IMG/VR virus record: IMGVR_UViG_2623620505_000005
DNA length: 46,276 nt
Reading direction: 5' to 3' (one strand)
Source of the DNA: a virus
Lineage: Duplodnaviria > Heunggongvirae > Uroviricota > Caudoviricetes
The position numbers and the translations under genes are program-made. A model generated the notes under the pieces. It searched no databases and was not told the origin of the DNA. It saw only the letters and a program-made list of their open reading frames with translations. Below are positions 1,777 through 20,856 of this stretch, piece after piece. How positions within the stretch are numbered: the stretch's first letter is position 1; each line of letters opens with the position of its first letter.

Positions 1777-3372
1777 TTATGGCTGAGACTCTGGTTTAGC
1801 AATCTCGTTTATAAATTTCTTAGCTACAACAGTCTCATACTTTCTATAATCATCAAGATATTGAACATCTATATGATTTTTGTAGCGAGCATTAAATTTA
1901 TTTGCAGCCCCTGTTTTATCATCTTTACGTTCATCCGTTGGTCTGAAAAATTTATGGTAGCGGCGGGGTGATACCCCCTCAAAATCACAAAATATTACTT
2001 TGGAAGATTCTTCGTTCTTTGTTATTGCATCATTATGCAGATCAAGAGCAAGGCTTTTATCAAATGGCTCTATATATACTACTTTTTTTATTCCAGATGC
2101 GACAATATGCCTTGCACAGTTGTGGCAGGGATAGGTTGTCGTAAAAAGAATTTTATCTTTAGTATCGCCGTTTTGTTTTCTAGCCATTGATGTAATGACG
2201 TCCATTTCAGCATGAATTGATCTGGAGTACTCCATTACACTTGATATTTTGCTGTCTTTGTAAATGCCTTCTGCAATATTATCTAATTTGTTTAGAAGTC
2301 GTGTTATATTAATATCGGCAACAGTTTGTCCTGCGGAAATACCTAATACACTTCTTACTTCGGTTGATAATATGCTTTTTATACGGTCTTTAATTTTTAG
2401 CTTGTTTGCATCATTATAACACTTACCACTTTTGTGAACGCATCGATGATCGTTATCAAAATCATCACTGCTATACAACCCGCCACCAGCTTTAGGTACG
2501 TCGTTCTTACCCACGGCAAGCAAATTCCCTTCATCATCAAACAGTGCAGCCCCTACTTGACGTGATAAACAAGCTGATTGTAATGATGTTGAAAAGGCAG
2601 CATACATACCTTTCTCGTTAAAAGTTGGTGTTAAACCATTTTTGCCATGAATAAGACCGAAAAACCGATCAATCTTCTTCTTTAATTCACTTTTTTGGCT
2701 GAAGTTATTTTTAATAAAAAAATCTGAATCAAGAATGGTTTCCCCGGTTCTTTGTCCATACGGATCAGAGGATTTATTATCAATATTGATAATTAAATGA
2801 AGGTCGTCCTTTGCCGATTCGTCAGCAATGAGATTCGGAATTCGGTAATCTAAATCGCGCAAAACTCCTAACAAATAGAAATTATGCTGATATATAACTC
2901 TGAATAACTCTATTTCTTCCGGCCTTTTGAATTGATCAATGATGAAGACAGTACCTTTATATTCATCATTATTATAATCAATATTCTTTTTCGCTGCTGC
3001 GATTGCTGCAATAGCAGCTTCTGCAAGCAACTCATTTTTTTCGTAATGTTTACGAAGTTTATTGGCAATATCCTGGAGTTTTAAATGTCTATTAACTTGT
3101 GTGCTTTCGGATACCTTCAGTGCTGCGGGCTCAAAATATAATGGGTCTTCCATAAGCGCACTTATGCGGATGTGTACAACATTATACCCCCATTCTTTGG
3201 ATATCTCTTCGATAATTTTGTTTATCGTTCTCATGCCACATCCAACATATCCACACAATCCAAGATAAATATCTTTTGATTGTCGTGAATTCACAATCTC
3301 AAGTGATGATGCCGATGTTGAGCCTTTTTTTTCATTCAGCTTTTGTGGAGTTTTTTTTGCTGCTTCAGCCAT
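1777..3372 (-). CDS. avcD: P-loop NTPase / deoxycytidylate-deaminase fusion protein, AvcD/DCD-like anti-phage dCTP deaminase
   Basis: 531 aa. C-terminal half has the zinc-deaminase signature (SACLSRQVGAAL ... HAEMDVI ... PCHNCARHIVASGIKKVVY); N-terminus has a glycine-rich P-loop-like segment (GLCGYVGCGMRT). Size and architecture match the AvcD/DCD family; AT-rich relative to the phage backbone. Confidence 0.7.
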   Translation of the reverse strand: MAEAAKKTPQKLNEKKGSTSASSLEIVNSRQSKDIYLGLCGYVGCGMRTINKIIEEISKEWGYNVVHIRISALMEDPLYFEPAALKVSESTQVNRHLKLQDIANKLRKHYEKNELLAEAAIAAIAAAKKNIDYNNDEYKGTVFIIDQFKRPEEIELFRVIYQHNFYLLGVLRDLDYRIPNLIADESAKDDLHLIINIDNKSSDPYGQRTGETILDSDFFIKNNFSQKSELKKKIDRFFGLIHGKNGLTPTFNEKGMYAAFSTSLQSACLSRQVGAALFDDEGNLLAVGKNDVPKAGGGLYSSDDFDNDHRCVHKSGKCYNDANKLKIKDRIKSILSTEVRSVLGISAGQTVADINITRLLNKLDNIAEGIYKDSKISSVMEYSRSIHAEMDVITSMARKQNGDTKDKILFTTTYPCHNCARHIVASGIKKVVYIEPFDKSLALDLHNDAITKNEESSKVIFCDFEGVSPRRYHKFFRPTDERKDDKTGAANKFNARYKNHIDVQYLDDYRKYETVVAKKFINEIAKPESQP

Positions 3373-4727: not shown

Positions 4728-5089
4728 TATGCTCCAGCCTCCGGCGCTTTGGGTATTACTGCCCAGTGAGTGATATTGAAGTTTTCAAGGTCCCCGACCT
4801 GAAATGTCCACTGCCATTCTCCGGTTTCTTTTTGTCCCCAGGTGTACCAGAGAGAACGCCAGCCAATCAGCCAGCCTTCTCCATTAGCATCAAATAACAG
4901 AACACTTTCATTTGCTGGTGGCAGTTCAGCTGACACTGGTATTATTTTGTTTTCCAGTGCCGCACATTTAGCTTCAAGCGCGTCGAATTTACGTACCAGG
5001 TACTCAGCATTTGTTTCGTTCACTTTCAGATCTCGCGGTACACATTTCCCGCGAAGAAACCCTTCCATTTCGAAAATATTCATGCGCAT
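4727..5089 (-). CDS. DUF551-like phage protein (YfdS-like)
   Basis: 120 aa; C-terminal THWAVIPKAPE resembles the DUF551 tail; start overlaps the upstream gene's stop. Confidence 0.55.
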   Translation of the reverse strand: MRMNIFEMEGFLRGKCVPRDLKVNETNAEYLVRKFDALEAKCAALENKIIPVSAELPPANESVLLFDANGEGWLIGWRSLWYTWGQKETGEWQWTFQVGDLENFNITHWAVIPKAPEAGA

Positions 5090-5616
5090 TTGCGTAACTC
5101 CGATAAATCGTTAAAACGTTCCATAAACATCCCGTAGGCATGACCCGGTGCCAGTGGAATCACGTTGAACATCTCTGTTGCCCGGATGCCTTCCAGTACA
5201 GGCCAGAAAGAGCCATCATCAAGCCCGAGATCGCGGCGTTCGGTTGCCAGCATGATGAGATCGGCATATTTCACGGGCGTACTCATAACTGGGGGTAACC
5301 CGTATTTCTCACGGATTACGGCGTCTATTTTTTCTTCCATCCGTTTATAGTCAGGAAGAAGTCGTTTCAGTGGTGCGGGGATGTCCTGGCAATATGCTTC
5401 TGTTGCATCATGCATTAACGCTTCAAAAGCAAATTCCTGCGGTACCAGCTGGCTGCAAAGCACCGCATGTTGGGCGACGCTGTAGAAGTGTGAAAGATGC
5501 CCTGCAAAGCGACAGATATTTGAAAGGGAAACCGCGATATCGTTAATAACGATGTCGTCTTTATTTATCTTGTCATAATAAAAATGCTTCCCGGAAAAAG
5601 TTTTAATAAATGACAT
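5080..5616 (-). CDS. HD-domain phosphohydrolase (YfdR-like 5'-deoxynucleotidase)
   Basis: HD motif in LMHDATEAYCQDIP. Start chosen at the ATG at 5614-5616 (MSFIKTF), which has a GGAGA Shine-Dalgarno 7 nt upstream; gives 178 aa. The track ORF extends further to 5679. Confidence 0.7.
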   Translation of the reverse strand: MSFIKTFSGKHFYYDKINKDDIVINDIAVSLSNICRFAGHLSHFYSVAQHAVLCSQLVPQEFAFEALMHDATEAYCQDIPAPLKRLLPDYKRMEEKIDAVIREKYGLPPVMSTPVKYADLIMLATERRDLGLDDGSFWPVLEGIRATEMFNVIPLAPGHAYGMFMERFNDLSELRKCA

Positions 5617-11486: not shown

Positions 11487-11977
11487 TCATGAGTCTTTTG
11501 AATGAAGTTCAGAAATTCATTGAAGCCCATCCGGGGTGTACTTCCGGAGACATTGCGGATGCTTTTGCAGGTTACTCACGGCAGCGCGTTCTGCAGTCAG
11601 CAAGCAAGTTACGTCAGAGTGGGCGTGTGGCTCACCGTTGTGAAGGAGATACACGCAGACATTTCCCACGCCTGACTGAGAGAGCGCAGGAGCCGGAACC
11701 ACAACCAGTTCGTGAAACCAGACCTGTGCGCAATTTCTATGTCGGCACTAACGATCCCCGGGTGATTTTGTGCCTGACCCGCCAGGCGGAAGAACTGGAG
11801 TCTAGGGGCTTATACCGTCGTGCTGCAACGGTGTGGATGGCGGCATTCCGTGAAAGCCACTCCCAGCCAGAACGAAACAATTTTCTGGCGCGTCGTGAGC
11901 GGTGCTTACGGAAAAGCAGCAAGCGCGCTGCATCAGGTGAAGAGTGGTATCTGTCAGGGAATTACGTGGGGGCTTAA
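11483..11977 (+). CDS. Hypothetical protein; possibly a PerC/ANR-like small regulator (weak)
   Basis: 164 aa; segment EELESRGLYRRAATVWMAAF is reminiscent of PerC-family proteins. This is a weak recollection, not verified. Confidence 0.45.
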   Translation: MIMSLLNEVQKFIEAHPGCTSGDIADAFAGYSRQRVLQSASKLRQSGRVAHRCEGDTRRHFPRLTERAQEPEPQPVRETRPVRNFYVGTNDPRVILCLTRQAEELESRGLYRRAATVWMAAFRESHSQPERNNFLARRERCLRKSSKRAASGEEWYLSGNYVGA

Positions 11978-12630
11978 TGAGTAATAAATATTGCCAGGCG
12001 CTGGTGGAGCTGCGGAACAAACCAGCCCATGAACTGAAGGAAGTGGGCGATCAGTGGCGCACGCCGGATAACATTTTCTGGGGAATTAACACCCTGTTTG
12101 GCCCGTTTGTTCTGGATCTGTTCACTGACGGTGATAACGCCAAATGTGCCGCGTATTACACGGCGGAAGACAACGCGCTGGCGCATGACTGGTCAGAACG
12201 TCTTGCGGAGCTTAAAGGTGCTGCCTTTGGTAATCCCCCATACAGCCGCGCCAGTCAGCATGAGGGGCAATACATCACCGGCATGCGTTACATCATGAAG
12301 CATGCCAGTGCCATGCGTGATAAAGGCGGGCGCTATGTTTTCCTGATCAAAGCTGCCACCAGCGAAGTGTGGTGGCCGGAAGACGCAGACCATATTGCTT
12401 TTATTCGCGGGCGTATTGGTTTTGAACTTCCTGCCTGGTTTATCCCGAAGGATGAGAAGCAGGTGCCGACAGGCGCTTTCTTCGCTGGTGCTATTGCTGT
12501 TTTCGACAAGACCTGGAAGGGACCGACAATCAGCTACATCGGGCGCGATGAACTTGAGGCATGTGGTGAGGCGTTTCTGGCGCAGGTTCGCCAGCAGGCA
12601 GAAAAACTTGTCAGGGAGATGGCGGCATGA
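11977..12630 (+). CDS. Phage Dam-like N6-adenine DNA methyltransferase
   Basis: NPPY catalytic motif (FGNPPYSRAS). Start at the ATG at 11977, overlapping the upstream stop (TAATG) with a G-rich ribosome-binding site; the track ORF starts at a GTG 33 nt earlier. Confidence 0.8.
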   Translation: MSNKYCQALVELRNKPAHELKEVGDQWRTPDNIFWGINTLFGPFVLDLFTDGDNAKCAAYYTAEDNALAHDWSERLAELKGAAFGNPPYSRASQHEGQYITGMRYIMKHASAMRDKGGRYVFLIKAATSEVWWPEDADHIAFIRGRIGFELPAWFIPKDEKQVPTGAFFAGAIAVFDKTWKGPTISYIGRDELEACGEAFLAQVRQQAEKLVREMAA

Positions 12631-15178: not shown

Positions 15179-15931
15179 ATGAACCTTGAATCCTTACCGA
15201 AATATTACTCCCCAAAATCTCCAAAATTGAGCGATGACGCACCGGCGACAGGCTCGGGTGGTTTAACAATTACGGATGTAATGGCTGCGCAGGGGATGGT
15301 GCAGTCGAAAGCACCGCTTGGGTTTGCCTTATTCCTGGCAAAAGTTGGTGTTCAGGATCCTCAGTTTGCGATTGAAGGTCTGCTCAATTACGCGATGGCA
15401 CTGGATAACCCGACATTGAACAAATTGAGTGAAGAAACCCGGTTACAGATCATCCCTTACCTTGTGAATTTTGCCTTTGCTGATTATTCCAGGTCTGCGG
15501 CAAGTAAGGCTCGCTGTGAGCATTGTGCTGGTACTGGATTTCATAATGTATTGCGCGAAGTGGTGAAACACTCCAGAAGCGGGGAATCTGTTATCAAGGA
15601 AGAGTGGGTGAAGGAACTGTGTCAGCATTGTCATGGTAAGGGAGAAGTCAGCACAGCGTGCAGAGGGTGTAAGGGTAAAGGTATTGTCCTGGATGAAAAA
15701 AGAACCCGGCTTCATGGCACGCCTGTTTATAAGGTTTGTGGGCGTTGCAATGGAAACCGGTTTAGCCGTTTACCAACCACACTGGCGCGGCTTCATGTCC
15801 AGAAGCTGGTACCAGACCTGACGGATTATCAGTGGTACAAAGGATATGCAGATGTCATTGATAAACTGGTTACAAAGTGCTGGCAGGAAGAAGCATATGC
15901 AGAGATACAATTGAGAAAGGTGACAAGATAA
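15179..15931 (+). CDS. Q: Late-gene antiterminator Q (250-aa zinc-binding type, QuuQ-like)
   Basis: 250 aa with CxxC clusters (CEHCAGTG, CQHCHGKGE, CRGCKGKG, CGRCNG); followed by a terminator and then the lysis genes. Confidence 0.75.
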   Translation: MNLESLPKYYSPKSPKLSDDAPATGSGGLTITDVMAAQGMVQSKAPLGFALFLAKVGVQDPQFAIEGLLNYAMALDNPTLNKLSEETRLQIIPYLVNFAFADYSRSAASKARCEHCAGTGFHNVLREVVKHSRSGESVIKEEWVKELCQHCHGKGEVSTACRGCKGKGIVLDEKRTRLHGTPVYKVCGRCNGNRFSRLPTTLARLHVQKLVPDLTDYQWYKGYADVIDKLVTKCWQEEAYAEIQLRKVTR

Positions 15932-16038
15932 ATGGTTTTCGCCGAAGATGACGACATGATGCTTGCGTTTTTCAAAAAATATGGATAAGATTTTCACAAC
16001 GATGGGCTTTGTATGTCTACCGTTGATAAGATTTAAGA

Positions 16039-16062
16039 ACCCGCCACTGAGCGGGTTTTTTT
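16039..16062 (+). terminator. Rho-independent terminator downstream of Q (tR'-like)
   Basis: ACCCGC-CACTGA-GCGGGT stem-loop followed by seven T residues, about 110 nt after the Q stop codon. Confidence 0.6.
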
Positions 16063-16160
16063 GTACCTGTAAACTTGGTGCAATACAGTAAACACGCTGG
16101 TGGTCGTGAATACTGACTTTTTATCTTGCTGGCTTTTTAGACAAGAGTTATTGGTATGTC

Positions 16161-16388
16161 ATGTTAACCAGAAGGGAAAAAGACATGCTAAAACAGCAAG
16201 ATATGACAGAAACCGCCGCCGCAGTCCTTCATTTCTTACCTGCTGACAAGTGGGTAACGCCACGCATGATGACGAGAACTACCGGAGTAAGCGAAGCCCG
16301 GTGCCAGTTAATACTGACTCAGTTAGTTCTGGCGGGGCTGGCGAAGGATAACGGCGGGTACGGGAATAAATTCAGACGCTGCCAGTAA
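16161..16388 (+). CDS. Small hypothetical protein in the Q-to-S moron site
   Basis: 75-aa ORF with no recognised domain, lying between the tR'-like terminator and the methyltransferase. Confidence 0.35.
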   Translation: MLTRREKDMLKQQDMTETAAAVLHFLPADKWVTPRMMTRTTGVSEARCQLILTQLVLAGLAKDNGGYGNKFRRCQ

Positions 16389-16538
16389 TGGCGGTTTCCT
16401 GCTGTGAAAATGGGCGGCTGGTGGGTGTTGGTAGCACCTGCCAGCCATTCGCTCATGCTTACTGGTCACAAGCGAACCACGGCCCACTGCTTTAGCGCAA
16501 AAGCAGAGTGAGCCTACCAGAGTTACGCTTACTGATCC

Positions 16539-17591
16539 ATGAAAAATACTGTAAAAATAAACAGTGTTGATTTAATCAACGCTGATTGCCTGCATTTTAT
16601 TCAGTCCCTGCCTGATGATTCCATTGACCTGATTGTTACCGATCCGCCGTACTTCAAGGTGAAACCCAACGGCTGGGACAATCAGTGGAAAGGGGACGAA
16701 GATTACCTTAAGTGGCTGGACCACTGTCTGGCCCAGTTCTGGCGGGTGTTAAAACCTGCCGGAAGCCTTTACCTGTTCTGTGGGCATCGCCTGGCATCTG
16801 ATATTGAGATCATGATGCGTGAACGTTTCAACGTGCTTAACCATATCATCTGGGCGAAGCCGTCCGGACGTTGGAATGGGTGTAATAAAGAAAGTCTGCG
16901 CGCATATTTTCCTGCCACAGAGCGCGTTCTGTTTGCTGAACATTACCAGGGGCCATATCGCGGCAAAAGTGACGGCTATGCGGAAAAAGAAAGGGAACTC
17001 AAACAGCGCATAATGGCACCGCTGATATCGTATTTCAGGGATGCTCGTGCCGAACTGGGTATAACGGCAAAACAGATTGCCGAAGCCACAGGTAAGAAAA
17101 ATATGGTTTCCCACTGGTTTGGTGCCAGTCAGTGGCAGTTGCCGAATGAGGCTGACTATCGGAAGTTACAGGCACTGTTTTCCCGTATAGCGGCAGAGAA
17201 GTTTCAGGAACAACAACTGGAACAACCACACCACCAGCTGGTGGCATCTTATGATTCACTGAATCGCAAATATTCTGAATTGCTGGATGAGTTTAAATCT
17301 CTCCGGCGCTATTTCTCCGTATCAGTCTCCGTGCCTTATACCGATGTCTGGATGCATAAACCCGTTCAGTTCTACCCGGGTAAACATCCGTGTGAGAAAC
17401 CGGCGGATATGCTCAGGCAAATAATCAATGCCAGTAGTCGACCAGGTGATCTGGTTGCTGATTTTTTTATGGGATCCGGTTCCACAATAAAAGCAGCAAT
17501 GGCGTTGGGGCGTCGGGCCTTAGGTGTTGAGCTTGAGTCAGAGCGGTTTAACCAGACAGTGAAAGAGATAAACGAGCTGGTGGGGAAATAA
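16539..17591 (+). CDS. DNA methyltransferase (beta-class N6-adenine/N4-cytosine), orphan
   Basis: 350 aa; DPPY motif near the N-terminus (LIVTDPPYF) and a SAM-binding FxGxG motif at the C-terminus (DFFMGSGST); no adjacent restriction endonuclease gene. Confidence 0.85.
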
Positions 17592-17597
17592 TCTGGT

Positions 17598-17619
17598 GGC
17601 CACGTCAGGTGGCCTTTTT
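17598..17619 (+). terminator. Rho-independent terminator between the methyltransferase and the holin
   Basis: GGCCAC-GTCAG-GTGGCC stem-loop followed by TTTTT. Confidence 0.55.
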
Positions 17620-17658
17620 ATTTCCATTACACAGCACCCGCATCTGCGAGGTGGGGTT

Positions 17659-17874
17659 ATGAAATCCATGGATAAGTTAACAACGGGTGTCGCCTATGGC
17701 ACCTCAGCAGGTAGTGCCGGGTACTGGTTTTTACAGTTGCTCGATAAAGTCACGCCCTCACAGTGGGCGGCAATAGGTGTGCTGGGTAGTCTGGTATTTG
17801 GCTTGCTGACGTATCTGACAAACCTTTATTTCAAGATTAAAGAAGATAAGCGTAAGGCTGCGAGAGGTGAATAA
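17659..17874 (+). CDS. S: Pinholin (phage 21 S21-type) with dual-start motif
   Basis: 71 aa from the ATG at 17659; begins MKSMDK (two starts, Met1 and Met4) and matches my recollection of S21 nearly residue for residue. The track ORF starts 21 codons earlier. Confidence 0.85.
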
Positions 17875-18371
17875 TGTCGCCATCATTACGCAAGGCTGTT
17901 GCTGCTGCTATTGGTGGTGGGGCTGTTGCCATAGCGTCTGTGCTCATTACTGGTCCGAGTGGTGACGATGGCCTGGAAGGTGTCAGCTACATACCATACA
18001 AAGATATCGTTGGTGTATGGACTGTATGTCACGGGCATACAGGAAAAGACATCATGCTCGGTAAAACGTATACCAAAGCAGAATGCAAAGCACTCTTGAA
18101 TAAAGACCTTGCCACTGTCGCCAGACAAATTAACCCGTACATCAAAGTCGATATACCGGAAACAACGCGCGGCGCTCTTTACTCGTTCGTCTACAACGTG
18201 GGTGCTGGCAATTTCAGAACATCGACGCTTCTTCGCAAAATAAACCAGGGCGATATCAAAGGCGCATGTGACCAGCTACGTCGCTGGATATACGCTGGCG
18301 GTAAGCAATGGAAAGGCCTGATGACTCGTCGTGAGATTGAGCGTGAAGTCTGTTTGTGGGGGCAACAATGA
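17874..18371 (+). CDS. R: SAR endolysin (phage 21 R21-type lysozyme)
   Basis: 165 aa; N-terminal Gly/Ala-rich signal-anchor-release segment ([18 protein letters not shown]); closely matches my recollection of R21. Confidence 0.9.
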
Positions 18372-18805
18372 GCAGAGTAACCGCGATTATCTCCGCTCTG
18401 GTTATCTGCATCATCGTCTGCCTGTCATGGGCTGTTAATCATTACCGTGATAATGCCATTACCTATAAAGAACAGCGCGATAAAGCCACGTACATCATCG
18501 CTGACATGCAGAAGCGTCAACGTGATGTAGCAGAACTCGACGCCAGATACACAAAGGAGCTTGCTGATGCTAACGCGACTATCGAAAGTCTACGTGCTGA
18601 TGTTTCTGTTGGGCGTAAGCGCCTGCAAGTCGCCGCCACCTGTGCAAAGTCAACGACCGGAGCCAGCGGCATGGGCAATGGAGAAAGCCCAGGACTTACA
18701 GCAGATGCTGAACTCAATTATTACCGTCTCCGAAGTGGAATCGACAAGATAACCGCGCAGGTTAACTACTTGCAGGAGTACATCAGGACGCAGTGCTTAA
18801 AATAA
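18368..18805 (+). CDS. Rz: Rz i-spanin
   Basis: N-terminal transmembrane segment followed by a coiled-coil region; ATG overlaps the endolysin stop (ATGA); contains an embedded +1-frame Rz1. Confidence 0.8.
18561..18752 (+). CDS. Rz1: Rz1 o-spanin (lipoprotein embedded within Rz)
   Basis: 63 aa entirely within Rz in another frame; lipobox LLGVSAC followed by a Pro-rich segment. Confidence 0.75.
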
Positions 18806-19226: not shown

Positions 19227-19847
19227 ATGAAAGATCAAGATGTTAGGTTCGCGGTGCATCATAAGCTTTTGAAAGAATCGCATTTAGATCCTGACTGCCT
19301 TGTGGTCGATGAATTTTCCATATCCCTTGGCGCCAGTAGAGCAGACATTGCTGTAATAAATGGTGTTATACACGGGTACGAGCTCAAAAGTGAATATGAC
19401 TCTTTGGAGCGTTTGCCTCTTCAAATCAAGCATTATTCTTCTGTAATGGACAAGGTTACTCTTGTCGTAGCTGAGAAACATCTTGAGGGAGCATTAAAGT
19501 TAATCCCAGGTTGGTGGGGCGTTAAAACGGTTTCTGTTGGGCCAAAAGGCGCCATTCTTATAAAGCACATGCGTGGAGAAAAGCTTAATCGAAACCATAA
19601 CTCATTGATGCTCGCTCAATTGCTTTGGAAAGATGAATGTATCGACGTACTTGAACGATGGGGCTATTCCAAAGGAATCAAAAGCAAGCCCCGATTTGAG
19701 TTATGGAATATTATTGCGGAAAATATTCCAATAGCGAATCTCAGGCTTGAAGTCAGAACAGCCTTAAAGAAACGCGTAGGCTGGAAAGTTAAGGCTTGGC
19801 AGGCTGAGTCTGCGCCAACCAATAAAGCTGTCTCACGACTAACGTAA
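19227..19847 (+). CDS. PD-(D/E)xK nuclease-like protein (possibly sce7726-family)
   Basis: 206 aa; N-terminal residues in the order expected for a restriction-endonuclease-like core (E in VVDEF, D in RADIAV, E-x-K in YELK); AT-rich; 3' end overlaps the convergent neighbour by 59 bp. Confidence 0.55.
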   Translation: MKDQDVRFAVHHKLLKESHLDPDCLVVDEFSISLGASRADIAVINGVIHGYELKSEYDSLERLPLQIKHYSSVMDKVTLVVAEKHLEGALKLIPGWWGVKTVSVGPKGAILIKHMRGEKLNRNHNSLMLAQLLWKDECIDVLERWGYSKGIKSKPRFELWNIIAENIPIANLRLEVRTALKKRVGWKVKAWQAESAPTNKAVSRLT

Positions 19848-20856
19848 TATGGTGCGTATGTGCAACTTTACGCCATTCTTTAGAGCCGCCAGATTTGTTA
19901 GCGCCTAATGATCTTTGGTAAATGTAATCATCCCCCCAACTAAATTTGGAGCCAAAGACTTGATACTCTGGCGAACTAACAAGGGTAGTACATAAGTTTT
20001 TAGTTTGGCCCCATCCATTTCCTTTAACTGCGGTACCTTTTACAAAGATCCATGAGGTATCGTTCGAATATCTCACTGAGACATACTGAGACATGAAGCG
20101 TGGGTCTACGCTCGTAATGGTAGAGCTAGCGGTGGGATAATCACTAAAACTTGGCGTTCTTCCATTGCTAAAATTCTGTACTACATACATCCAAAGATCG
20201 TATTCATGGCGCGGAATATGATGAACTTGATGTTGCGGTATCCCTGCCTGTGATGCAGGGTATGCGGTTGAAGATAAAATCAAGTTTCTCCACGGAGCTT
20301 GGCCTGATAATGTGTTGACCATGCTTAATGCTTGTTGTTTTAAACTATCAGTTGCGTTTTGAATATCTCCAAAATCAATGATTACATCAATTAAACTAGG
20401 ATGAATATTTAAGTGGTTAACCAGACTTGTGAATTGGTGCCATGTCTGGGGGGTGATAGATATAGCGAGCCCATTGATTAAGTTGCGTTGAACAGCATGT
20501 ATATAGTTTGTTGAATATGCGGGAGAGACAACAGGGATAATTTCCTTACCATTTACTCTAGCATCTTGGATACACATATCTAGAGGATGATGGCGGCTCG
20601 AACCATGTTTATCTAAATATTTAACATCCAGCAAAACAGGACGATTGGCTTTCCAGGATGCCGCAAGATTAATACCGAAGTCAGATAAGTAAGAACTCAA
20701 ACTCTTCTTGTAGCATTCGTTTTCATAATCCCAGTCTATGTCTGGAATGGTAATGATCGGAGTAAAACCAGAGAGCGTAGTTTGATCTAAAAGCATCAGA
20801 GATTCATATTCAGCAGGCTTCCATTTCAGCTGTGGGTAATATTGATGTTGACTCAT
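19789..20856 (-). CDS. P4 beta-family protein (Beta_protein / possibly sce7725-family)
   Basis: 355 aa; N-terminus YYPQLKWKPAEYESL resembles the start of the phage P4 beta-protein family as I recall it; strong AAGGAG Shine-Dalgarno; convergent with and overlapping the PD-(D/E)xK-like gene. Confidence 0.55.
   Translation of the reverse strand: MSQHQYYPQLKWKPAEYESLMLLDQTTLSGFTPIITIPDIDWDYENECYKKSLSSYLSDFGINLAASWKANRPVLLDVKYLDKHGSSRHHPLDMCIQDARVNGKEIIPVVSPAYSTNYIHAVQRNLINGLAISITPQTWHQFTSLVNHLNIHPSLIDVIIDFGDIQNATDSLKQQALSMVNTLSGQAPWRNLILSSTAYPASQAGIPQHQVHHIPRHEYDLWMYVVQNFSNGRTPSFSDYPTASSTITSVDPRFMSQYVSVRYSNDTSWIFVKGTAVKGNGWGQTKNLCTTLVSSPEYQVFGSKFSWGDDYIYQRSLGANKSGGSKEWRKVAHTHHITLVVRQLYWLAQTQPAKP

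Follow-up and report, generated by a model that had tools for sequence, protein, structure and literature searches.

The stretch of DNA analysed in this work (hereafter the window) is 46,276 nucleotides (nt) long and belongs to a tailed virus under Caudoviricetes (IMG/VR record IMGVR_UViG_2623620505_000005). The locus under study lies at positions 15932-17658, between the antiterminator gene Q and the holin gene, and encodes an orphan DNA adenine methyltransferase. The question raised by this locus is whether the methyltransferase gene is a self-contained moron, as a sequence-only reading of the window had proposed, or a gene of the phage late operon, and how its expression is controlled. We consider it rather probable that the late operon of a lambdoid Escherichia coli prophage begins in this region and that the region carries a controlled methyltransferase cassette. 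On balance, we also favour a mom-like control in several layers, where a hazardous non-specific DNA-modification enzyme would be restrained both by Q dependence and by an RNA leader with a winged-helix protein. The features of the cassette are as follows.

15179..15931 (+): antiterminator Q (Pfam Antiterm PF03589, 177 bits), a relative of Q-lambda with an inserted CxxCxGxG zinc module
15963..16006 (+): late promoter pR', by alignment with lambda pR'
16037..16066 (+): intrinsic terminator tR', 8-bp stem and U7, -14 kcal/mol, z = -3.4
16185..16388 (+): small winged-helix protein of 67 amino acids (aa), SfV orf47 family, phrog_331; an alternative start at 16161 gives 75 aa
16404..16541 (+): structured RNA leader of ~135 nt that ends at the methyltransferase AUG, by nhmmer, covariance model and covariation
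16539..17591 (+): beta-class N6-adenine DNA methyltransferase of the M.EcoGII family, 350 aa (PF01555), stop codon at 17589-17591
17598..17622 (+): second intrinsic terminator, located past the methyltransferase stop codon and before the holin gene

The Q switch and the methyltransferase gene

The nearest solved structure to the Q protein is that of Q-lambda (PDB 7ubm, E 5.6e-38). The protein also matches DnaJ_CXXCXGXG at 31 bits; it aligns with Q-lambda at both ends, with the DnaJ-type CxxCxGxG zinc module of ~45 residues inserted. A gene of the Q-lambda family is located directly 5' of the late promoter, as in a Q antitermination unit. The promoter consists of a -35 hexamer TTGCGT (15963-15968), a 17-nt spacer and a -10 hexamer TAAGAT (15986-15991), with the transcription start near 15998. 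The order that follows Q in the window is TTGCGT-17 nt-TAAGAT-TTTCAC-AACGATGGG, and the order in lambda pR' (locus L008, 752-796) is TTGACT-17 nt-TAAATT-TGACTC-AACGATGGG. The 6-nt gap is common to both, and the pause element AACGATGGG of the window (15998-16006) is identical to the lambda element and located at an equal distance from the -10 hexamer. The spacer between the hexamers differs from the lambda spacer, and the DNA-binding context of this Q is also different. In lambda, the initially transcribed region contains a -10-like element at which the sigma70 RNA polymerase is held for the loading of Q. We have assigned 15963-16006 as pR' and the next hairpin as tR' because of this alignment with lambda pR', which includes the identical AACGATGGG.

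The hairpin of tR', GAACCCGC-CACTGA-GCGGGTTT, is located at 16037-16058, and a run of seven T extends to 16062. An intrinsic terminator is thus found 40 nt past the pause element AACGATGGG. The sequence-only reading had already placed a terminator near 16039-16062, which agrees with this hairpin of -14 kcal/mol. It had also taken that terminator as the boundary of a moron, and this assignment is replaced here, as the terminator belongs to a lambda-type pR'/Q switch as its tR'. The consensus terminator scan missed tR', and a second scan by the same rules listed it. In phage SfV (a record of the early 2000s) and in phage Ayreon, both tR' and the second terminator were already annotated. When the interval 15800-17800 was compared with Rfam 15 at E <= 1, tR' obtained only two sub-threshold matches that resemble Trp and Leu leader attenuators.

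Without Q, a constitutive pR' transcript of ~65 nt that ends at tR' is expected. This arrangement is similar to the lambda pR'-tR' interval that yields 6S RNA and to StxS (PMC7547250), where a constitutive late promoter with an immediate terminator produces a short RNA in the lysogen and Q permits read-through. However, the short transcript of the window differs from StxS, as no similarity was detected between the pR'-tR' interval and the 933W-type Shiga toxin (Stx) phages, where StxS is made. A 676-bp insert, which encodes a 141-aa open reading frame (ORF) without a Pfam match, was observed between two copies of the tR' hairpin in Ayreon (locus L002, 2428-3145) and in the Stx2c phages (locus L004, 6970-7616); the corresponding hairpin in the window is at 16038-16064. 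This suggests that the tR' hairpins serve as module junctions, from duplication around the insert.

The second terminator consists of GGCCAC/GTGGCC at 17598-17614 followed by T5 (-15.6 kcal/mol, z = -3.75). The terminator that the sequence-only reading had placed at 17598-17619 before a pinholin gene is confirmed by this hairpin, and a holin gene with an MKSM dual start comes next. Terminator-like sites are enriched in the stretch (11 versus 4.2 +/- 2.1 expected), and promoter-like sites are not (5 versus 5.7 in shuffled sequence). A weak promoter-like match with 9 of 12 consensus positions is located at 16243-16270, inside the small ORF. The methyltransferase is read as a Q-dependent late gene because no separate promoter stands out. 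In the best reading, it is the first substantial gene that the Q-dependent late operon contains, rather than a self-contained moron, and the earlier description as a moron fits the locus less well.

Another hairpin was identified between the small ORF and the leader, where it encloses the stop codon of the small ORF.

16379..16394 (+): hairpin CUGCCA-GUAA-UGGCGG with the small-ORF stop codon in its loop

This hairpin is followed only by a weak U-run and fails the terminator rule in the window. We regard tR' and the terminator at 17598 as the effective brackets of the cassette because the hairpin at 16379-16394 is without a good U-run. Among the distinct related loci, 43 of 91 have a terminator-like hairpin within 70 nt 5' of the leader (background 16/273). 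In 43/74 related loci, a terminator-like site follows the methyltransferase stop codon at a distance of at most 90 nt.

The methyltransferase matches Pfam N6_N4_Mtase (PF01555) at 146 bits (cut-off 26.7). The DPPY motif (residues 35-38) precedes the FMGSGS motif (residues 310-315), which is the motif order of the beta class. The 350-aa beta-class enzyme with DPPY and FxGxG motifs that had been described from the sequence is intact. It is 80% identical and 90% similar to M.EcoGII over the full length (349 aa, 2 gaps) and 89% identical to Anc291, the reconstructed ancestor of the M.EcoGII clade, where both compared sequences come from a machine-read supplementary table of PMC11551740 in which a few residues are unreliable. 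The target-recognition region (~residues 160-237) is ungapped and of high identity in both comparisons. Judged from its sequence, the methyltransferase is a member of the M.EcoGII family of non-specific adenine methyltransferases. The interval between Q and the holin gene holds only the small ORF and the methyltransferase gene, without a cognate endonuclease as in a type II restriction-modification system. This agrees with the earlier view that the enzyme is an orphan, as no restriction-enzyme-like ORF or nuclease domain is found there.

M.EcoGII methylates adenine in any DNA context and, more weakly, RNA (PMC5778455, PMC7544214). In the O104:H4 lysogen it is not expressed, and attempts to express it constitutively were harmful to the cell (PMC5778455, PMC7544214). 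Both Anc291 and SUPREM have an activity that is largely non-site-specific (PMC11551740). In the ST131 strain EC958, the homolog M.EcoMV was judged inactive by reverse transcription PCR (PMC4659465), and the homologs in O111 Shiga toxin-producing E. coli had no assignable methylation motif (PMC6602927). The expected phenotype of the methyltransferase in the window, as predicted from its relatives, is the same: absence of a motif, no activity while lysogenic, and massive methylation of adenines once the gene is expressed. The determination of a methylation motif in a lysogen, which had been put forward as a check, would mislead because the enzyme is M.EcoGII-type, non-specific and lysogen-silent; a refutation by a missing motif would mislead likewise, as the absence of a motif is the predicted outcome for such an enzyme. 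The suggested epigenetic role in the lysogen is also unlikely, since lysogens do not transcribe the close homologs or have them in an inactive state, and attempts to express M.EcoGII constitutively damaged the cell (PMC5778455, PMC4659465, PMC6602927).

The known system closest to the enzyme is M.EcoGII/M.EcoGI of E. coli O104:H4 C227-11 (Fang 2012; Murray 2018, PMC5778455), with which it shares the family, the length, 80% identity, the motif order and the status of a prophage orphan. The copy in the window differs as another allele that is nearer to Anc291 (89%), and its activity is predicted. The M.EcoGII papers cover the enzyme, and not the place in a Q-dependent late operon, the leader or the small-ORF partner. 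A second phage N6-adenine methyltransferase, which is Dam-like, is encoded in the nin region (11977-12630, +), which gives the prophage two adenine methylases.

The RNA leader and its small protein partners

The 150-nt gap between the small ORF and the methyltransferase ATG is conserved well beyond E. coli. The nhmmer profile of the leader matches 60 of the 86 related loci, and every match ends at the methyltransferase ATG. These loci come from Salmonella, Providencia, Morganella, Yersinia, Ewingella, Serratia and Vibrio. A loose DNA pattern made from the conserved blocks of the leader was also scanned over IMG/VR, and 80 loci were read. The methyltransferase ATG is located 53-55 nt past the match in 73 of them. 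The other seven, which are without a methyltransferase, are chance matches, and the covariance model rejects all seven. Thus, the leader was seen only before M.EcoGII-type methyltransferases (73/73 true IMG/VR matches). The covariance model gives a single match in the window (16404-16544, 150 bits) and also finds the leader before the methyltransferases recovered with Vibrio and N15-like protein queries. The matches of the covariance model and of nhmmer end at the AUG of the methyltransferase or of a Com-like ORF. No Shine-Dalgarno sequence precedes the methyltransferase start in the window, nor the leader AUG in any clade.

A coding function of the leader was considered and rejected, as the ORF that opens at its invariant AUG ranges from 3 to >43 codons and all three frames are used between the blocks. 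Conservation by codon phase is 0.69, 0.70 and 0.68, which exhibits no 3-nt periodicity. Compared with the window, other copies of the leader are mostly 58-88% identical (45% for the N15-like copy), and third codon positions in the adjacent gene are 37-54% identical. The leader is under purifying selection. Comparison with Rfam 15 gave nothing at E <= 1 for 15800-17800 apart from the two matches on tR', and nothing meaningful at E <= 10 for 16370-16570. RefSeq has no annotation over the leader, and no methyltransferase-associated RNA motif was found described in the literature.

Several variants of the leader were observed. The Xenorhabdus and Photorhabdus loci (L065-L091, ~2418-2506) have a shortened leader of 26-30 bits in which the 5' domain is kept and the 3' domain is replaced. 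One IMG/VR contig (L168, 287-427 and 3272-3413, -) has two leader copies ~3 kb apart. In Vibrio phage MAR (L011, 3287-3445), the annotated 52-aa hypothetical protein gp57 overlaps the leader, and this gene call is probably spurious.

The conserved elements and helices of the leader are as follows.

16410-15 (+): AUGGGC
16451-57 (+): GCUCAUG
16464-74 (+): box GGUCACAAGCG
16481-86 (+): GGCCCA
16510-19 (+): GAGCCUAYCA
16526-37 (+): CGCUUACUGAUC, directly before the AUG, which pairs with box GGUCACAAGCG (helix P3)
16416-27 with 16435-46 (+): hairpin H1; double changes in 9/12 pairs of the MAFFT alignment (52 sequences) and in 9/10 of the covariance-model alignment (94 sequences), where 89% of cells are paired
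16485-93 with 16500-10 (+): hairpin H3; double changes in 7/7 counted pairs of the covariance-model alignment (94 distinct sequences)
16481-83 with 16512-14 (+): helix J, which extends H3; 95.7% paired, outer pair GC 64, AU 12 and GU 9 (94 sequences)

The leader has a core of two hairpins, H1 and H3. The covariance model was built on the H1 and H3 structure only, in order to favour neither of the two rival helix sets described below; its alignment is fitted to these helices, and the pair counts for H1 and H3 lean towards them. The structure-blind MAFFT alignment agrees on the covariation. Slid registers are 27-45% paired, compared to 82-84% for the whole structures. By the covariation in H1, H3 and J, the leader is a conserved structured RNA, as expected of a cis-regulatory element.

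The segments between the hairpins (AUGGGCG, GGCCCA and GAGCCUAYCA) are near-invariant, and two mutually exclusive pairings are possible for them. In the closed form (i/P3/J), AUGGGC and GCUCAU form helix i, which is 89% paired with wobble-compatible changes only, and box GGUCACAAGCG pairs with CGCUUACUGAUC as P3. In the other form (A/ii), UGGGC and GCCCA form helix A, and GCUCAUG pairs with box GGUCACAAGCG as helix ii. Helices ii and P3 are each ~64% paired in the 94 sequences, about double the pairing in any slid register. A single column of the box (column 86) exhibits covariation with each of its two partners (CG 35/UA 35 and AU 32/GC 16). For the leader of the window, the closed form has -56.5 kcal/mol compared to -56.9 kcal/mol for the minimum free energy (MFE) fold, and the other form is 11 kcal/mol higher. 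In the predicted MFE fold, the bases that precede the AUG are sequestered. With the MAFFT alignment, RNAalifold recovered only H1 and the long-range UGGGC/GCCCA helix, an outcome limited by the alternative pairings. A two-state switch of the leader is a reasoned hypothesis.

The small ORF upstream of the leader encodes a candidate partner. The sequence-only reading had listed it as an ORF of 75 aa; it is present at 16161-16388, and the start at 16185, which gives 67 aa, is better. This start has AAGGGA 8 nt upstream, matches RefSeq WP_000917724 and gives the commonest length among the homologs. The 89 homologs comprise two allelic types that are ~51% identical overall, and both types keep the invariant RCQLILTQL..AG of helix 3. 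The AlphaFold (AF2) model, with a confidence value (pLDDT) of 87, exhibits the H-H-H-beta-beta topology of a winged helix. Foldseek identified Zalpha (template modelling score, TM, 0.82), TrmBL2, IclR and the RNA-binding winged helix of SelB at TM 0.6-0.8, where E ~4e-3 is weak, as expected of a protein of 65 residues. Matches to the MarR and TrmB families of Pfam were sub-threshold, and nothing above threshold was found in Pfam, NCBIfam or PADLOC. Membership in the Zalpha family was rejected, as the resemblance is at the fold level only and is typical of minimal winged helices. The lambda orf-64, which occupies the same place, was rejected as a relative since there is no similarity.

The winged-helix ORF is located just 5' of the leader in 64 of the 80 IMG/VR loci. 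A recognisable winged-helix ORF is also kept in the Xenorhabdus and Photorhabdus loci. The N15-like phage YDC107_1 has a 75-aa remote homolog at the same place (hhalign 76%, E 2e-5, with sub-threshold winged-helix Pfam matches). In one IMG/VR clade (L215-L230, L356 and L364, ~430-560), an ORF of 36-48 aa with a CxxC...CxxC pattern opens at the terminal AUG of the leader, and the methyltransferase begins ~130 nt past the start of this ORF. One member matches Pfam Zn_ribbon_Com (PF10122) at 27.5 bits (cut-off 22.9), and the others obtain 16-20 bits. No Com-like ORF is found between Q and the holin gene in the window. In phage Mu, an inhibitory RNA stem is opened by Com, which permits the late translation of mom, a harmful DNA-modification gene. 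The comparison with Mu suggests that the winged-helix protein may play a Com-like role at the leader. The invariant recognition helix and the near-invariant RNA fit a candidate RNA-binding role of the winged-helix protein. Its possible control of methyltransferase expression, which the sequence-only reading had raised, is the most interesting lead from this locus.

Proposed control and competing explanations

In the lysogen, pR' transcripts would stop at tR' and the methyltransferase would be silent. Upon induction, the Q-modified RNA polymerase would pass tR' and the second terminator, and the methyltransferase would be made together with the lysis proteins. The enzyme would then modify most adenines in the replicating and packaging phage DNA, and the progeny would thereby be protected against many type I, II and III restriction systems on entry into the next host. 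We propose a second layer of control because indiscriminate methylation harms the cell. This layer would be translational and would act through the fold of the leader, where 16526-16537 pairs with the conserved box at 16464-16474. Opening of the closed leader probably needs a partner, and the co-travelling winged-helix protein would be the best candidate by analogy with Mu Com. Tentatively, the leader may be an undescribed class of bistable RNA that gates methyltransferase translation, operated by a winged-helix RNA-binding activator (a Com-like zinc ribbon in one clade) or by a small-molecule ligand.

The system that most resembles this proposal is Mu mom, a late DNA adenine modification that is harmful if mis-expressed and whose translation start is closed by an RNA structure and opened by a small protein encoded upstream. 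The likeness extends to the clade of relatives that has the Com-like zinc-ribbon ORF between the leader and the methyltransferase. However, Mom is not an S-adenosylmethionine (SAM)-dependent methyltransferase and the proteins are unrelated. The window has a winged-helix ORF that is located 5' rather than 3' of the leader, and no Com. The leader is far larger than the inhibitory stem of Mu, and the control is by Q rather than by C and Dam/OxyR.

Several points weigh against this interpretation. The promoter scan is a consensus scan, from which a weak or non-sigma70 promoter could escape. We infer the non-specificity of the enzyme from its 80-89% identity to M.EcoGII and Anc291. The translational switch is the weakest part of the proposal. 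Helix A is 99% paired but invariant (one double change, in L033) and hence uninformative, the support for the ii and P3 pairings could be partly phylogenetic, and neither form is uniformly favoured across the family, where the relative stability varies by lineage. Some relatives, for example Serratia phage OS31, are without a winged-helix ORF adjoining the leader. The anti-restriction role of the methylation is the usual assumption, and no paper that shows hypermethylated virion DNA for these phages was found in the literature.

We have weighed four other explanations, of which two concern the enzyme. The locus could be a true moron. In this case, the lysogen would transcribe the methyltransferase gene, alone or together with the small ORF, from a promoter of its own, and the enzyme would protect the host chromosome or reprogram it epigenetically. 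The orphan status of a methyltransferase between two terminators, a cassette that is absent from lambda and reduced to a remnant in 933W-type phages, and the weak promoter-like match at 16243-16270 are consistent with a moron. This explanation is nonetheless highly improbable, as the count of promoter-like sites does not exceed that of shuffled sequence, the 5' terminator is the tR' of the Q switch, and the position before the lysis genes is kept across phage types. Close homologs are also silent in lysogens and without a motif (PMC5778455, PMC4659465, PMC6602927), and the cell was harmed in attempts at constitutive M.EcoGII expression (PMC5778455). It is quite unlikely that the enzyme is instead a sequence-specific orphan with a defined site and a protective role against a single cognate restriction system. 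Generic type II methyltransferase models account for the Pfam and PADLOC matches, the nearest solved relatives (RsrI, MboIIA and CcrM) are site-specific, and 20% of the residues differ from M.EcoGII. However, these differences leave the target-recognition region ungapped and highly identical to M.EcoGII and Anc291, and the tested members of the bracketing clade (M.EcoGII, Anc291 and SUPREM) are without site specificity (PMC5778455, PMC11551740). The nearest named site-specific relative, M.PflMI, falls outside the clade (PMC11551740).

The other two concern the leader. It could be a metabolite riboswitch, for example for SAM or S-adenosylhomocysteine (SAH), rather than a protein-operated element, where AUGGGCG, GGCCCA and GAGCCUAYCA form the ligand pocket and the alternative helices form the expression platform. 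Such a design would account for the highly conserved unpaired or alternatively paired segments beside freely covarying hairpins and for the two exclusive helix sets (i/P3/J and A/ii), each with some covariation support, and the leader is also found without an adjacent winged-helix ORF. We regard a riboswitch as unlikely, given that there is no similarity to Rfam riboswitches even at E <= 10, that a small nucleic-acid-binding ORF (winged-helix or Com-like) is almost always attached, and that the gene context hints at no ligand beyond the methyltransferase itself. An element for RNA processing, stability or transcription is also quite improbable. In this case, i and H1 would form an RNase III-type site, comparable to those of T7 and of the lambda late and N-leader RNAs, or the leader would be a polymerase modifier similar to put of HK022. 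The ~18 bp coaxial helix of i and H1 with a 4-nt asymmetric bulge is suited to processing, as is its position within a long polycistronic late transcript, often directly behind a terminator-like hairpin. Yet the leader ends exactly at an AUG without a Shine-Dalgarno sequence and pairs with the bases before that AUG, and a put-like function leaves the strict link to one gene family unexplained. Processing and translational activation are not mutually exclusive.

The proposed control of the methyltransferase by Q and by the leader matters for several reasons. M.EcoGII is a widely used laboratory enzyme whose natural regulation has so far been left at 'prophage gene, not expressed', and the place in a Q-dependent late operon would explain the lysogen silence of the M.EcoGII family. 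A further prediction is that the virions of a large group of temperate coliphages, some Stx phages included, would carry DNA in which most adenines are methylated. This has a bearing on host range, restriction, defence that depends on N6-methyladenine and the reading of lysogen methylomes. The covarying leader without a Shine-Dalgarno sequence and its winged-helix partner make the restraint of an indiscriminate methylase until late in infection directly testable. A structured RNA this common in E. coli yet missing from Rfam would also be of interest to RNA biology.

Distribution of the cassette, the stx genes and the neighbouring genes

Around the cassette, 3.3 kb match the E. coli ARS-C101 chromosome at 100% identity and many other E. 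coli genomes at 98-99%. The order in the ARS-C101 prophage is integrase ... Q, small ORF, methyltransferase, EssD holin, RrrD lysozyme, Rz, terminase, head and tail. In a set of 5426 complete E. coli genomes, at least 1157 have the methyltransferase gene over >=80% of its length. The leader may occur in about one in five complete E. coli genomes, as well as in many further phages of Enterobacterales and Vibrio, which is a tentative estimate.

The region is 96-99% identical in phages Ayreon, mEp460, cdtI and SfV, with the layout annotated likewise. The architecture of SfV orf47-orf48 (NC_003444), mEp460, cdtI and Ayreon, namely Q, terminator, small ORF, methyltransferase, terminator and holin, is identical to that of the window. 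In the SfV-type phages, the methyltransferase is 98% identical and the covariance score of the leader is the same (150.5 bits). SfV differs in its small-ORF allele (51% identity) and in its lambda-S-type holin, and Ayreon differs in its extra 676-bp insert. The cassette itself is already known (from SfV) and very common. The leader and its small-protein partners, which were not found described in Rfam 15 or in the literature, look new and are the added value of this work.

More distant relatives are found at the same position. In Serratia phage OS31, the methyltransferase relative (64%) is located downstream of Q and directly 5' of the lysis genes. The relatives in the N15-like phage YDC107_1 (56%) and in the VHML-like Vibrio phage MAR (50%) are located directly 5' of the holin and endolysin genes. 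The Vibrio methyltransferases of the VHML ORF17 type (MAR gp58), which are ~50% identical and directly 5' of the lysis genes, have the same leader (73 bits) and differ in their myovirus background without a lambda-type Q. The conserved place before the lysis genes fits late production alongside the lysis proteins. In OS31 (L009, 2236-2772), a SocA/Panacea antitoxin-like ORF and a 164-aa ORF replace the winged-helix ORF between Q and the leader with its methyltransferase.

The sequence-only reading had noted that Stx phages carry tRNA and stx genes at this site and that the window has neither. The second statement is correct, as the tRNA scan is empty, with no tRNA or tmRNA anywhere in the window and no stx either. 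The first statement holds in so far as the same interval is used for tRNAs and stx, but the methyltransferase and stx are not alternatives, since the Stx2c phages and the Stx2a phage WGPS2 carry both. The order in WGPS2 is small ORF, methyltransferase (93% to M.EcoGII), three tRNAs, stx2AB, nanS-p and holin. WGPS2 thus has a closer relative of M.EcoGII, in the same layout of small ORF, leader and methyltransferase. Between the Stx2c phages and the window, the nucleotide identity is 98% over Q-pR'-tR' and 90% over the methyltransferase; the homology stops at window position 17537 and restarts in the holin gene 5.2 kb on, with tRNAs in between. In the Stx2c and some Stx2a phages, the small ORF, the leader and the methyltransferase are located immediately 5' of the tRNA-stx cassette.

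The toxin cassette thus takes the place of the second terminator, and the methyltransferase module 5' of it was there before. In the 933W-type Stx2a phages, the last ~35 codons of the methyltransferase remain directly 5' of tRNA-stx2 (L006, phage 86, and L007, PA30, both 4962-5114). The covariance model finds no leader in these remnant loci, and the small ORF is lost as well. These findings suggest that the stx2 cassette was acquired beside an ancestral methyltransferase module that later decayed in the 933W-type phages. The presence of the cassette is polymorphic, as lambda is without it and the 933W-type phages have the remnant only, and the cassette has a downstream terminator; in these two respects it resembles a moron. 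In the Stx2c and some Stx2a phages, the module on the late transcript 5' of tRNA-stx could influence the toxin mRNA.

The lysis genes of the window follow the second terminator.

17659..17874 (+): S21-type pinholin (P21-holin, Pfam PF04971, 121 bits), with the two start codons of its MKSM dual start at ATG 17659 and 17668
17874-18371 (+): lysozyme of the signal-anchor-release (SAR) type, PF00959
18356-18805 (+): Rz, PF03245
18561-18752 (+): Rz1-like ORF embedded in Rz in another frame, with a lipobox-like LLGVSAC

The ORF at 18561-18752 is likely the Rz1 spanin, and it is absent from the matching RefSeq annotation. Two groups of other genes were also observed in the window. A gene for an anti-phage dCTP deaminase (1777-3372, -; PADLOC dCTPase, 544 bits) is located at the prophage end beside the integrase gene (386-1624, +). 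An overlapping convergent pair, 19227-19847 (+) and 19789-20856 (-), is located between Rz and the terminase. RefSeq annotates the pair as 'sce7726 family' and 'beta family', and PADLOC matches it to cll (107 bits) and PD-Lambda-2_C (110 bits). This pair resembles an insertion of the defence type into the late region.

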